A stretch of DNA of 63,129 nt. Source: a candidate division WOR-3 bacterium (lineage in GTDB: Bacteria; Hydrothermota; Tepidihabitantia; SM23-42; JAOAFX01). Below are positions 55,501 through 60,400 of this stretch, one piece after another. Below the pieces are notes generated by a model. The model had not been told where the DNA came from, did no database searches, and saw nothing but the letters and a program-made list of their open reading frames with translations. The number at the start of each line of letters is the position of its first letter. The stretch's first letter is position 1. The stretch covers positions 1 through 63,129 of the forward strand of contig CBFGJP010000003.1 in assembly GCA_965649105.1 (NCBI GenBank). The letters are read 5' to 3'. A program made the position numbers and the translations under genes.

Positions 55501-56065
55501 AAAGATAAATAATGACGACCACTGGCATAATTATGCAACTATAGGAATTCGGAATTATCATCACACAAAGGGTATTGAATATTCCTATGCGAATCAATAT
55601 CCGTCTTCAGCAGCAGTCATCGAAAATTATCGGGCAATTAAATTTACAACTGACCCGCCTGACCCATTTCCCGGGATAAAAGAAACGGCAAATTCGCAAT
55701 CCGCAACCCAAAGTCTGGGATTAGATATCTATCCCAATCCCTTCAGAGAAAAGACGGAAATCAGATGCCAGATACCAGATGCCAGATGCCAGATGCCGGA
55801 TGCCGGATACCAGATTTCAGATTATTCTTCGTCAGCTACTTTGAAGATCTATGATGCGACAGGTCGCTTGGTAAGGTCTTTTCCATTGACTACTGACTAC
55901 TGCGTACTGAATACTCTTGTCTGGGATGGTTGTGATGATTCGGGTCGCAGGGTCCCTGCAGGTATTTATTTTATTGAATTAAAATACAGGAACAATTTTA
56001 GCAGTGTGATTCATCGCACAAATATTGATATAAGCAAGATTCAAAAGGTAATCTTGCTGAGATGA
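52568..56065 (+). CDS. Gingipain-like C25-family protein 1 with Ig-like domains and Por/T9SS-like CTD; catalytic His absent
   Basis: YVILIGD, IGRLSV, NYRGG, IVC, LLGDP, YPNPF...IYDATGR...WDG...GIYF...KVILLR. Confidence 0.9.
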   Translation: MITLSFLLISALTGLDIQVINRTENAIQLNLSFSEQIIEPVNIGFIISPQPPNCEYYVGKNFNSSYNPVVVGAPVKLKDYNLYPIIINPVISIKKLNLNLNFSKYQEIKIPNSLAQVFKNLILNYEYKPEIEPQGLLIITPNSFYNAVLPLADWKEKKGWKVTVARLSETGTSATAIKNYITNAYYNWNPAPEYVILIGDKDSLPCFTISSNPTDHPYTTIVGNDFLSDLLIGRLSVANANELNTVIAKIINYEKNPYTTDTLWFKRTLMVAGNYPDNQMTTPIPTKRWVREKFLDYGYYQVDTVFYPPTANGATAITNSVNQGVTFVNYRGGIASWSGWDRPSFYNTDVIGLSNGWKLPVVTSIVCLTGNFNAEPCFGESWLRAGNPSTPKGAIAFFGASPPTTHSRWNNCLDFGIYWGLLQDSIFNIGPMTYRGKMEVYLNFPLEVSPDSGSEFYFNAYNLLGDPSLEVWTDVPKNLTVNHQAIIPVGTNSFSVQVLNSSSQPIKGAMVSLYKKNETKEVGFTDASGLANFQITTSTPDTLFVTVTKHNFRPYYGYALVNNSGVYVGYHSHTISDPGGNNNGEINPGETINLSITLKNFGNSTTATNVSARLSTNDPLITITDSIKNYGTIIPGATASSSPFIFSVSHGIKNNHTIKFNLTINSSQGNWNSVLWLVTKAAEFDYQRHQVIDSGNGILEPGETADLAISIKNIGGLAGTNITGLLKSLNPGVSVIDSLGSFGNIPVGDSTTNSGDVFRVSASSQLAPGHEIKFLAILSENNWIRDTIGFSIVIGVVGPNAPTGPDGYGYYAYDNTDTSYPEAPVYNWVEIDPDLGGPGTIISLSNDETKTITIPFTFKYYGNNYNRISICSNGYIAMDSTWIADMYNWHIFGAGGPPLLISPFWDDLDPNATDSSGNICYYYDVSNHRFIIEWSRIQHLHNPTAPTPAELQTFEIILYDPIYYSTQTGDGEILFQYKKINNDDHWHNYATIGIRNYHHTKGIEYSYANQYPSSAAVIENYRAIKFTTDPPDPFPGIKETANSQSATQSLGLDIYPNPFREKTEIRCQIPDARCQMPDAGYQISDYSSSATLKIYDATGRLVRSFPLTTDYCVLNTLVWDGCDDSGRRVPAGIYFIELKYRNNFSSVIHRTNIDISKIQKVILLR
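55762..55824 (+). repeat. Nine CAGATGC-like heptamers, in frame within the CTD
   Basis: cagatgc cagatac cagatgc cagatgc cagatgc cggatgc cggatac cagattt cagatta (63 nt). Confidence 0.95.
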
Positions 56066-56111
56066 TATTGAAACACCGTAAATTTCGTAAGAAACAAACA
56101 AAAGGGGGTAT

Positions 56112-57395: not shown

Positions 57396-57402
57396 GAGAA
57401 AA

Positions 57403-60400
57403 ATGAAGAAAGCAATTTCCTTGACAATAACTATCTTTATATTACTTGGGTTTTCCCAAGAAATCGGTGCAAAATATTTAATAATTACCCATGACAATTT
57501 TTATGATGCAATCCTGCCTTATGCCCGGTGGAAGCATAAGATGGGATATAAAACAAAGATTGTCCGGGTCCCTTCAGAACTTGCCCAGAACGCAACTTCA
57601 ATAAGAAACTATATCGTGAATGCCTATAACAACTGGCAGATAAAACCAGAATTTATCTTATTCGTCGGCGCTCCGAACTACATACCCTGGTCTATGACTT
57701 CACCATACAGTGATAACAATTATACGAATATTGAAGGCGATATTTATAATGAAATCCTATCCGGAAGGTTGACAGTCCATAATACAACTGAAGCACAAAC
57801 AGTGATAAGCAAATTACTCCTGTATGAAAGGTATCCCGATACAACAAGCACGGAATGGTTTATAAATGCGTGTTTGATTGTGCGTGAAGACTACGAGCAG
57901 TACAGCGATTCTATTTACTGGAGCGATATCAGATATGCAAAGCGATTGATGTCTGAAAATGAATTTAATGTTATAGATACGCTTTCGCGTGTCCAGGGAA
58001 ACAATTCAAGCGATGTCATCAATAGAGTCAATCAAGGCAGGGGATTTGTATTATACAGGGGTCAAGGTGTAGGAAACTGGTGGAGCCCGTTTGATGTTAA
58101 TCCGGATGCAACCCAGAATGACACAAAATTACCCATTGTCCTCTCAATCACCTGTCAGACAATAGGTACCGGTTCATCACCAGCGACCGCAGAAAAATGG
58201 TTACTCACTGGAACACCTACGCAACCACGTGGCGGTGCAGGGTATTTTGCAACGACAACGATTGTCACACACGAGGCATACCTGAGGAGTGCAGTATGCA
58301 AAGGATTCTTTGACGGACTCTTCACTGAACGAAAGAATAGATTTGGTGAGGCATGTGAAAATGGTAGAAAAAGGGTATATCAAATGTACGGTGATCAAGA
58401 AGAGTATCGGGGTTTTACAACCATTGGTGACCCGGCAATGTTAATCTGGACTGCTAAACCGTTATCTATCAACGTAGCACATGATTCTATTCTTTATGTG
58501 GGAGCAGAAGATACAGTAAATGTAACTGTCCAGCATCAAAGTATACCGGTTGAATCTGCTCTGGTCTGTATTACACTTGACACCGTAATATACCAAACTG
58601 GTTATACTAATTCAAATGGTGAAATTAGTTTTGTCGTTCAACCATTACTACCCGGAACAATGAATGTCACCGTTACGGGCAGAAACCTTTATCCTTACGA
58701 AGGCGCCATTCAGGTGATAACAGGAAATGTCCATCTTGATTATGTATCGTATTCGTTTAACGATTCGCTGGGTAATGCAAATGATACAATCAATGAGAAC
58801 GAGACAATACTTTTATGGACAAAGATTAAGAATATCGGCTATTCTCCTGCCCATAATGTTATAGCACTTTTAAAAACCGCTGATACGACAATTCAAATTA
58901 GTGATAGTATTTCTTTTTATGGAGAATTATTCCCAATGATTGAGCAAAATGGATTGAATCCTTTTGTCTTTTCAGTTTCTCCGTATGCTTGTTCCCACTC
59001 CATTCCTTTCGAAGTTATTTTAACCGACTCACAAGGAGATACATTTATCTATGATTTCTCAGTACCATTAGTAAAAGAGAATGGTGCTGTCGGTCCTGAC
59101 CCTTATGGCTATTATACTTATGATGATACAGATACACTAACTGGAAACGCACCTGTGTATGAATGGTTTGAAATTGCACCGCCCGGTCCTGGGGTGATAG
59201 TGAGTGAGATCACTGATGAAGATGCAGATACAGTAACTTATGCTTTGCCTTTTGTTTTTTCGTTCTACGGGATAGATTACAACACCATTGGCTTATGCTC
59301 AAATGGATTTTTAGAACTGAGTACATCAACGCACCGTTTTGGCAGTAATACAGCAATCCCATCCGTCGGCGGACCAAAGAGAATGCTGGCACCATTCTGG
59401 GATGACCTTGATTTGAGACCTGCGCCGACCGGTAATGGAGATGTATATTATTACAATGATACTACAAATCATAGATGGATTGTAGAATACAAAGATTGTG
59501 CCCACTATGGCAATACATCAACACTTGAAACCTTCCAGGTAATTCTCCTTGACCCTCAGTATTATCCAACGCCAACCGGAGACGGCGAAATACTATTTCT
59601 ATATAACACCGTGTCGAATCCTGGCGAAAATACCGTGGGTATAGAGGATGAAACCGAGACCCGTGGTCTTCAATATCTGTATAATGGTAACTATGCCCCT
59701 GATGCAATGCCGATTCAAAATGGCCGGGCACTGCTCATTACCACAAAACCTCCAATAAGCCACCACTCACCATGGATTGTTATGACAAACTATGTAGTAA
59801 ATGACTCTGCCGGTGGTAACAATAATGGTATCCCTGAACCAAATGAAACGATTGAATTGACAATCTATATCCAGAATAATGGGGATACAATCGTAACAAA
59901 TCTAAGCGGCATTCTAACAACCAGTTCAACGAGTCTTTCTTTGGTAGATTCCATTGCTGATTTTGGTGATATTGACATTGGACAAAATTCTGACAATAGT
60001 TCCAATCCCTATATTCTCCAAATCTCTGATAATCCACTTGATACCCTGGTTGGACTTGTATCTCACTTTTCTGGTAATAATGGAAATTATAATACCAGTG
60101 CTTACCTGACATTGAGGATTCATTCCGATTTCAAGATTGAGGAAAAGACAATTTCGCAATCCGCAATCCGCAGTCCCAAATTAGAGGTCTATCCCAATCC
60201 ATTCCGGAATCACCTCTTCATCAAATCCGAAATCCGAAATCCGAAATCCGCAATTCTATTGAGGATCTATGATGTTTCAGGAAGGTTGGTCAAATCATTT
60301 AACCACTTAACCATTCAACCATTTAACCAGGTCGTCTGGGATGGCTCAGATGATTCGGGTCGCATGCTTCCTGCAGGTGTCTATTTTATCAGATTAGAGG

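Follow-up and report, generated by a model that had tools for sequence, protein, structure and literature searches.

In a 63-kb stretch of a candidate division WOR-3 chromosome (contig CBFGJP010000003.1, positions 1–63,129; hereafter the window), three neighbouring genes, A, B and C, encode proteins that end in a type IX secretion system (T9SS) sorting domain (C-terminal domain, CTD). Three segments of each CTD, namely the linker before the fold, the β2–β3 hairpin and the β4–β5 hairpin, are written in short tandem arrays with a unit of seven or, at one site, eight nucleotides. The same three segments hold such arrays in related CTDs of the lineage. The reading that we favour, at a probability of about 0.58, is that the arrays are slippage-prone repeats which are homogenised by gene conversion and tolerated in the unconstrained hairpins of a cleaved signal, with occasional secretion-OFF alleles.

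The CTDs of genes B and C exceeded the curated cut-offs of both PF18962 (30.3 and 33.3 bits; cut-off 27) and TIGR04183 (32.9 and 41.1 bits; cut-off 23). Gene A, identified by Pfam matches to Peptidase_C25 (7.6e-65) and FlgD_ig (38 bits), stayed below both cut-offs with its CTD (Por_Secre_tail, 22 bits, cut-off 27; TIGR04183, 19 bits, cut-off 23), because the expanded repeat segment interrupts the model. The domain nonetheless aligned with the CTDs of B and C. All three carried the hallmarks YPNPF, IYDxxGR, WDGxDDxGR and GxYF, and they were the sole YPNPF/WDG-type CTDs in the window. On the basis of hidden Markov model (HMM) matches, C-terminal place, near-terminal lysine and PNPF, IYDxxGR and GxYF motifs, all three are T9SS type A sorting domains and belong to a sub-family spread across WOR-3. 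Genes for the T9SS machinery (SprA/Sov, PorV, PorU, GldKLMN) were not recognised in the 63-kb window of this uncultured lineage, which is represented by metagenome-assembled genomes (MAGs). The window is a bacterial chromosome segment with a G+C content of 39.7%, and its nearest relatives were WOR-3 MAGs at 70–80% protein identity. An exact look-up of protein B gave no match; the best protein identities were 80% in genome scans and 73% in metagenome scans, and no contig in these scans came closer to the species of the window.

Table 1. Genes, control domain and repeat arrays of the window. Sites 1, 2 and 3 denote the linker before YPNPF, the segment between YPNPF and IYDxxGR, and the segment between GR and WDG.
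Feature	Coordinates	Strand	Description
S8 peptidase	11946–14312	+	Internal control; CTD at 14046–14309, divergent subtype without YPNPF and WDG
Gene A	52568–56065	+	C25 (gingipain-like) peptidase, 1165 aa; T9SS-type CTD with expanded β2–β3 segment
A, site 1	55691–55711	+	AATTCGC AATCCGC AACCCAA; 3 units, imperfect, read directly; below TRF threshold
A, site 2	55762–55822	+	CAGATGC/CAGATAC, ~8 units (TRF 7.7–8.7 copies, 7.7 at 89% match; or 21-mer x2.9); encodes IRCQIPDARCQMPDAGYQ
A, site 3	55887–55915	+	TGACTAC x4.1; encodes LTTDYCVLN
Gene B	56112–57395	+	BNR/Ycf48-like β-propeller protein, 427 aa; T9SS type A CTD
B, site 1	57103–57126	+	AATCCGC/AATCCGA x3.4; encodes QSAIQNPK
B, site 2	57168–57199	+	AAATCCG x4.6, 100% perfect; encodes KSEIRNPKSEI
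B, site 3	57238–57278 (57246–57271 as heptamer)	+	AATCATG-like, also 14-mer x2.9; encodes LESCIMNQAS
Gene C	57403–60444	+	Second C25 peptidase, 1013 aa; T9SS type A CTD
C, site 1	60155–60176	+	CGCAATC x3.1; encodes SQSAIRSP
C, site 2	60223–60254	+	AAATCCG x4.6, one mismatch; encodes KSEIRNPKSAI
C, site 3	60296–60329	+	Octamer CATTTAAC x4.2; encodes SFNHLTIQPFNQ
G-rich repeats	60446–60560	+	Degenerate 7/12-nt repeats directly after the gene C stop codon; TRF 60446–60501 and 60470–60493

Arrays in the window were called with Tandem Repeats Finder (TRF; Table 1). The lag-7 identity of the CTDs of A, B and C was 0.48, 0.51 and 0.41, compared with shuffle means of 0.25–0.27 (z = 8.1, 7.9 and 4.5), and the highest lag-7 sliding windows of the whole 63 kb were these three CTDs. 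Eight arrays of period 7 or 8 were found in approximately 1 kb of CTD sequence, as opposed to five weak ones in the other 62 kb (~96-fold enrichment, Fisher p = 6e-12). A first-pass annotation, made from the DNA sequence alone, had described 7/8-nt arrays at three sites of all three CTDs. The arrays are real, with one reservation: eight were recovered by TRF, including the period-8 array of gene C, while site 1 of gene A is weak. The same annotation held that the units differ between genes at conserved positions. The positions are indeed conserved, and across the lineage, but sites 1 and 2 of B and C do not count as independent. The CTD DNA of these two genes was 83–100% identical from the linker to IYDVSGR and 37–67% identical beyond it, so the front halves represent one sequence by recent descent or conversion. 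That the arrays always preserve the frame was correct as well, if trivially so for intact open reading frames (ORFs). The CTD of the S8 peptidase, reported as free of repeats, was so: its lag-7 identity was 0.28, without 7-nt periodicity, in a divergent CTD subtype. In the beta2–beta3 segment of gene A, the array adds approximately 14 aa.

Outside the CTD genes, and apart from the G-rich repeats downstream of gene C, the sole heptamer array with at least three copies in the window was a weak intergenic AACCAAT x3.7 beside ligA (1005–1030). Raised lag-7 identity outside the CTDs was seen only in the Lys/Glu-rich C-terminal tail (~80 aa) of ribosomal protein L17 (25325–25921, reverse strand), which is encoded by T/C-rich 15–18-nt repeats (25345–25372, 25454–25510) and is probably a low-complexity region.

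An AlphaFold2 model of the gene C CTD was a seven-strand β-sandwich (mean pLDDT 87.5), and its best Foldseek matches were the CTDs of PorZ, PorU, translocon-bound NucA and mirolase. In this model site 1 (residues 14–21) occupies a low-confidence linker before β1. Site 2 (residues 37–47) covers the end of β2, the β2–β3 loop and the first residue of β3, and site 3 (residues 61–72) the end of β4, the β4–β5 loop and the start of β5. The earlier statement that the arrays fill loops was therefore right for the linker and the two hairpins but too narrow, since the adjoining strand ends are also array-encoded. Site 2 of gene B would take the same place, judging from the homologous gene C model. The model further suggests that the linker and both hairpins lie at one pole of the sandwich, facing the passenger, and that the PNPF, IYDxxGR and WDGxDDxG loops lie at the opposite pole. 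Structures of the T9SS translocon indicate that the conserved CTD motifs set the fold and that the binding pocket is plastic, with poorly conserved contacts (PMC10994853).

The first survey covered the window and 33 WOR-3-like loci (361 kb), with 65 CTDs spanning 23 kb. Period-7 arrays numbered 67 inside and 23 outside CTDs, the latter mostly in CTDs cut by contig ends; the corresponding counts were 17 and 3 for period 14, and 1 and 59 for periods 9–12. Among 62 protein-anchored CTDs, 12 arrays were located in the 25 codons before YPNPF, 45 between YPNPF and IYDxxGR (YPNPF..IYD) and 37 between GR and WxGxD (GR..WDG), with none in the other 8.8 kb of these CTDs. The second survey comprised 80 loci with 82 CTDs picked solely by the conserved motifs IYDxxGRLV and LPAGVYF, using a trimmed CTD alignment as the query. 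Arrays were present in 64 of the 82 and confined to the linker, YPNPF..IYD and GR..WDG. The first-pass annotation had proposed such a survey of CTD genes in relatives, and across 133 unique CTDs arrays occurred at the same three sites only. Nor were repeats spread equally over other sequence: in both surveys together (~780 kb), 229 arrays of the period-7 family lay beside at least two CTD hallmarks, 11 beside one and 22 beside none, whereas for other periods 53 arrays adjoined CTD hallmarks and 152 lay elsewhere. Several of the 22 non-CTD arrays were intergenic and just downstream of a CTD stop codon, like the G-rich repeats after gene C. Non-coding arrays in this position (L255 1004–1061, L256 3399–3465, L303 1289–1368, L293 3468–3550) were of heptamer, 21-mer or G-rich degenerate type, and their CTACTAC-like and GAAGTGG-like units resembled those within CTDs.

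In the 133 unique CTDs the lag-7 identity was 0.48 for YPNPF..IYDxxGR and 0.39 for GR..WDG, compared with 0.25–0.29 for the other CTD segments, and the signal remained in segments of canonical length. The first variable segment ranged from 18 to 88 aa in length. The length of GR..WDG was nearly fixed, with a mode of 19 aa and 111 of the 133 CTDs at 17–20 aa (18 aa in other phyla), so the arrays there replace the canonical sequence and do not expand it. In an earlier suggestion of tolerated expansion in a cleaved domain, the tolerance fits the disordered linker, the two hairpins and the plastic pocket (PMC10994853), but the expansion does not hold for the GR..WDG segment, at 19 versus 18 aa. 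Control CTDs from Ignavibacteriota, Bacteroidota and Cloacimonadota kept the canonical form (..AGxYxVxF/W), and their second segment gave no lag-7 signal. As a third survey also found canonical, array-free CTDs within WOR-3, the array-built CTD is a derived sub-family. The usual array had 3–5 units with 73–100% matches, and some reached 9, 13.6 and 16.6 units. Steps of 7 aa in the length of YPNPF..IYD, the signature of three-unit changes, were weakly visible and were not used as evidence.

The arrays are DNA-level simple-sequence repeats (SSRs) and not peptide repeats. A unit of 7 or 8 nt passes through all three frames, and repetition at the protein level would give a period of 21 nt instead of 7. 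Among 165 arrays with at least three copies and no indels, 46 (28%) had a consensus unit with a sense-strand stop triplet. For 45 of these 46, a perfect array would hold an in-frame stop, and it is precisely at the stop codons that the actual sequences depart from the consensus: the window has TGC in place of TGA at 55887 and 57246, and CAA in place of TAA at 60296. Such stop-containing units show that the periodicity is not driven by coding. The strand motifs IRYQIP (AT CAGATAC CAGATAC C) and IKFQIP (ATT AAATTCC AAATTCC A) are already two heptamer copies each and thus natural seeds for slippage. As single strands the arrays were less structured than shuffles. Pairing between the arrays of the two segments was ruled out on this account and because their units are not complementary.

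A function of the repeat-encoded sequence itself could reside in the protein, if a WOR-3-specific PorV/PorU recognised the hairpins or if they set the cleavage site, or in the RNA, where binding sites or a 3' region without structure might serve to co-regulate the mRNAs of T9SS cargo. The recurrence of a few peptide types over deep divergence (e.g. ESCI(M/L)N(H/Q)xS, LSVIGHPSS, HLTIQPFNQ), the fixed length of GR..WDG, the arrays just after CTD stop codons and the low degree of structure are consistent with such a role. Both the 7-nt period and the stop-containing units argue against a protein function, however, and the units differ between genes and even between orthologues with ~90% DNA identity, so that a binding partner would find no common motif. 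Rfam gave no match in the CTD/array region. We consider a function of this kind improbable.

The variable segments turned over rapidly. Five orthologous loci with 88–91% DNA identity had wholly different fillings in both segments, while their CTD tails stayed orthologous. Between sister-MAG orthologues with 97–100% identical flanks, AAATNCC was exchanged for AAATNCG in four successive units, a concerted change. An 18-nt palindromic insertion in site 3 was common to several paralogues of one genome and absent from the sister-genome orthologues. Two CTD front halves with ~95% identity differed by a 21-nt, three-unit indel and were followed by unrelated back halves. Paralogous CTDs within one genome often held the same cassettes, as did all three in L004 and in L013. 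The mosaics, concerted changes and paralogue-shared cassettes point to slippage combined with short-tract gene conversion, with breakpoints in the conserved motifs. No array differences were found in the near-identical contig pairs L189/L193, L003/L187 and L015/L199.

In-frame palindromic elements were observed in both CTD segments (L268/L310 versus L262/L293 for site 3; L005, L193, L278 and others for site 2). They comprised the 18-nt insert CCGCCAATCAGCGTGGCGG ('SANQRGG'), a recurrent 'VGQGFSLA' (GGCAGGGCTTCAGCCTTGCC) and 'SPFSSPHRGEGWGEG'. A like hairpin (GCGGCTTCCAAGCCGC) was present in intergenic DNA of the window after gene C (60610–60640).

The site specificity had led to the suggestion of a targeted repeat-generating mechanism, for which a reverse transcriptase, a template-switching polymerase or a recombinase supplied with donor cassettes would be candidates. 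The specificity for site and domain is extreme, and an active process could be suspected from the in-frame AAATCCG arrays that housekeeping genes of many phyla contain. Paralogy, gene conversion and structural constraint explain the site specificity, however, and the cassettes are old, mosaic in make-up and shared; the heptamer pairs in IRYQIP and IKFQIP provide seeds without any machine. In a Pfam search of nearly all window ORFs of at least 150 aa, excluding those overlapped by a longer ORF, LigA, MutL and a RecJ-like DHH protein were found, and no reverse transcriptase, unusual polymerase or recombinase; a template repeat like that of a diversity-generating retroelement was likewise absent from the 63 kb. 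We find the suggestion unsupported and regard a dedicated generator as very improbable.

Neither 7 nor 8 is divisible by 3, so a slip of one unit always truncates the CTD. In silico, every change of plus or minus one unit in the eight window arrays led to a stop within 40 codons. A natural counterpart was found in a WOR-3 relative, not the species of the window, at the locus of a 186-aa CTD protein (P0018) whose family has its nearest genome match in a WOR-3 MAG (79%). The P0018 cluster had eight sequences from several databases, and the locus was retrieved from eleven assemblies with 95–100% identical flanks. The intact allele (...CAGATGC AAGATGT AAGAAGT AAGAAGC AAGATAT...) was present in seven assemblies (L337–L343). 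Three others (L333–L335) lacked exactly one 7-nt unit; their product ends ...QMQDVRSKIFL* at 121 aa, and the remaining CTD is intact in another frame. These three were two ENA assemblies and one Logan assembly, from different assemblers and samples and with at least two flank backgrounds. In one further assembly the segment was swapped for the heptamer array AAATTCC AAGTTCC AAGCTCC AAGAGCC. A 6-codon patch after WDG (DDSGCR or DQNDRM) was linked neither to the repeat segment nor to the N-terminal haplotype (L333–L343) but assorted on its own, a sign of very short conversion tracts within one species. A BrxC/BrxD-like gene is located near the P0018 locus.

Frame-agnostic scans of the survey loci yielded ~146 CTDs with all anchors in one frame and three frameshifted ones. 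All three frameshifts fell inside YPNPF..IYD arrays, and in L269 the upstream passenger ORF was intact. In one MAG (JBDRWI01), the 3' end of L025 and the 5' end of L001 overlapped by ~450 nt at 97% identity, but the first segment differed between the two, being in frame in one and frameshifted in the other. Either strain heterogeneity or an assembly break induced by paralogues may account for this difference. Contigs of these organisms tend to end within CTDs, and many CTD proteins in databases are 'partial'; a second round of cluster members likewise consisted mostly of contig-truncated fragments and was uninformative.

Contig breaks inside CTDs and partial entries at contig ends are also what chance low complexity or an assembly artefact would lead one to expect. 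That explanation is effectively refuted by the z scores and Fisher test of the window, by the repetition of the pattern in more than 130 CTDs from dozens of independent assemblies, and by the recovery of the 7-nt deletion with different assemblers and samples.

The first-pass annotation had also raised the possibility of a contingency switch, in which a one-unit slip frameshifts the sorting signal. The truncation for 8/8 arrays and the natural allele (three assemblies versus seven with the intact form) bear out its mechanics, and the length variation in populations that it asked for was seen, in the relative, as that 7-nt unit difference, but OFF alleles are rare (3 versus ~146). If selected, such phase variation would maintain the arrays because single-unit slips switch T9SS export or surface attachment of individual cargo proteins, giving a secretome or surface that varies combinatorially. 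Such variation could, for instance, protect against phages whose receptors are surface cargo proteins, or limit public-goods proteases. It would account for units not divisible by 3 at every site, for stops after every one-unit change in the window and for a deletion allele on at least two flank backgrounds with the rest of its CTD intact in another frame. The three further frameshifts, all within YPNPF..IYD arrays and one with its passenger ORF intact, the two segment versions at overlapping contig ends of one MAG, the few long arrays (9, 13.6 and 16.6 units) and the retention of periodicity over deep divergence fit it as well. On the other hand, most arrays have only 3–5 units and are often imperfect, ~28% of them cannot be perfect without creating a stop, and frameshifted CTDs amounted to 3 of ~149. 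Known phase-variable genes usually show far more OFF alleles than this. A switch at the 3' end would also waste a full-length protein and leave proteases in the periplasm. Where one population had been assembled independently more than once (including L003/L187 and L015/L199), the assemblies were identical, and no reversion was observed. The arrays thus share with contingency loci the tandem repeat inside an ORF, the unit that is not a multiple of 3 and frameshifted unit-number alleles in a WOR-3 relative, but not the long, near-perfect tracts. Selected phase variation is a possible explanation, though on this evidence an unlikely one. Also possible but unlikely is a secretome-wide 'phasome' in the T9SS signal of WOR-3 and its neighbours, in which every cargo gene would have heptamer switches of its own in the CTD hairpins, paralogue homogenisation would keep the arrays competent for slippage, and cells would differ stochastically, for each cargo separately, in export or surface anchoring.

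We favour slippage and conversion under tolerance. The linker and the two hairpins, written in short heptanucleotide and sometimes octanucleotide arrays, change by replication slippage, of which the 7-nt loss and the 21-nt indel are on record, and by gene conversion in short tracts, for which each genome offers many paralogous CTDs. The arrays probably persist as their segments are free of sequence constraint: the motifs that set the fold lie elsewhere, the translocon pocket is plastic and the CTD is removed after export. Selection appears limited to the reading frame, the lack of stops and the length of the second hairpin. From known CTD biology, a truncated CTD should stop the export of that one cargo, and OFF alleles would be an occasional by-product. 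Loops of heptamer size escape MutS-dependent mismatch repair; this escape, together with the status of heptamers as an over-represented class of long SSR in bacteria, may explain the choice of unit. Three observations weigh against this account. Firstly, intergenic DNA, presumably tolerant too, has few arrays except just downstream of CTD genes. Tolerance alone therefore does not explain the specificity for CTDs, and propagation within the CTD family is needed. Secondly, the 7-nt periodicity of GR..WDG is kept at constant length even between genomes with ~50% protein identity, which suggests continuing homogenisation or some selection on periodicity itself. Thirdly, the frameshifted CTDs were all otherwise intact, which fits recent or reversible switching as well as mutational burden.

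The CTD genes belong to a tandem run of three C25 (gingipain-like) peptidase genes and the BNR-propeller gene (52568–63129), preceded by a gene for an LVIVD-repeat protein (51600–52571). The third C25 gene starts at ~60714, downstream of a strong sigma-70-like promoter (60649–60676), and runs past the end of the window, leaving its CTD out of sight.

The unit at site 2 of B and C is widespread. A scan for AAATCCG alone, with no control heptamer, found (AAATCCG)x3 or more in genomes of more than 120 species, e.g. Verrucomicrobiota, Acidobacteriota, Planctomycetota, Chloroflexota and Patescibacteria. In 47 of 120 loci (L066–L185) the array was internal to a stop-free stretch of at least 250 aa; the unit itself lacks stop triplets in all six reading frames. 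In-frame arrays (KSEIRNP) were confirmed with Pfam in a class I aminoacyl-tRNA synthetase, ArgRS, a PEP-utilising enzyme, the 5'-3' exonuclease of Pol I and SecA. A UvrA-like protein also held an array, with the Pfam match limited to an ABC ATPase stretch away from it. The presence of AAATCCG in frame in housekeeping genes of many phyla is a broader, apparently undescribed observation.

A sorting signal with microsatellite variable parts ties a mutational process to a defined structural position across an uncultured lineage, and offers a testable case of repeat slippage that switches export rather than expression. The arrays also account for the assembly breaks at CTD genes and for the large number of partial entries in databases. 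The failure of gene A to reach the curated cut-offs is a caution for HMM-based detection of CTDs.

In SSR contingency loci, coding repeats vary by slipped-strand mispairing, as with the tetranucleotide repeats of Haemophilus influenzae (PMC3315296, PMC2651432). The CTD arrays resemble them in having tandem units that are not multiples of 3 in genes for surface or secreted proteins, and in the natural frameshift by loss of one unit. They differ in being short (3–5 units) and often imperfect, and in occurring as two or three arrays per CTD, shared by dozens of genes through one domain family. Contingency repeats lie near the start of the gene, whereas the CTD arrays lie at the extreme 3' end, in the sorting signal, where the expected loss is that of export and not of the protein.

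An excess of heptamers among bacterial SSRs is mentioned in PMC4692102, which cites Mrazek 2007. Known heptanucleotide families include STRR of cyanobacteria and GGGAATC of Xanthomonas (PMC4692102), as well as the TAACTGA heptamers of Beggiatoaceae, Cyanobacteria and Bacteroidetes (PMC4679880). These families are overwhelmingly intergenic, apart from a few arrays that fall in ORFs, either at the ends of proteins or in hypothetical proteins. In common with them, the CTD arrays have a 7-nt period, several unit families per genome, extensive differences in length and sequence among close relatives and occasional inverted pairs. The CTACTGA-like unit at site 3 of gene A is one base from TAACTGA and is the sole unit that resembles those families. 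In contrast to the intergenic families, the CTD arrays are almost exclusively coding and located at fixed structural positions of one domain.

Compared with T9SS type A CTDs (TIGR04183/PF18962; structures of RgpB, PorZ, PorU, NucA and mirolase), the fold and motifs are alike and the array segments differ. The cassette-based variation of pilin or opa genes is an example of concerted or mosaic conversion of multi-copy surface-protein segments. The CTD arrays share the features of such conversion, with segments common to paralogues and absent from orthologues, breakpoints in conserved motifs and independently recombining patches. Unlike in pilin and opa genes, no silent donors were identified, and the exchanged parts are in a cleaved signal instead of the exposed mature protein. 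Diversity-generating retroelements, defined by a reverse transcriptase and a template repeat near the target, had no counterpart within the 63 kb. In our literature searches we met no report of a secretion signal domain that is systematically built from SSR arrays. Heptamer families, coding SSR contingency loci and T9SS CTDs are each known; what appears to be new is that SSR arrays build parts of the sorting domain.

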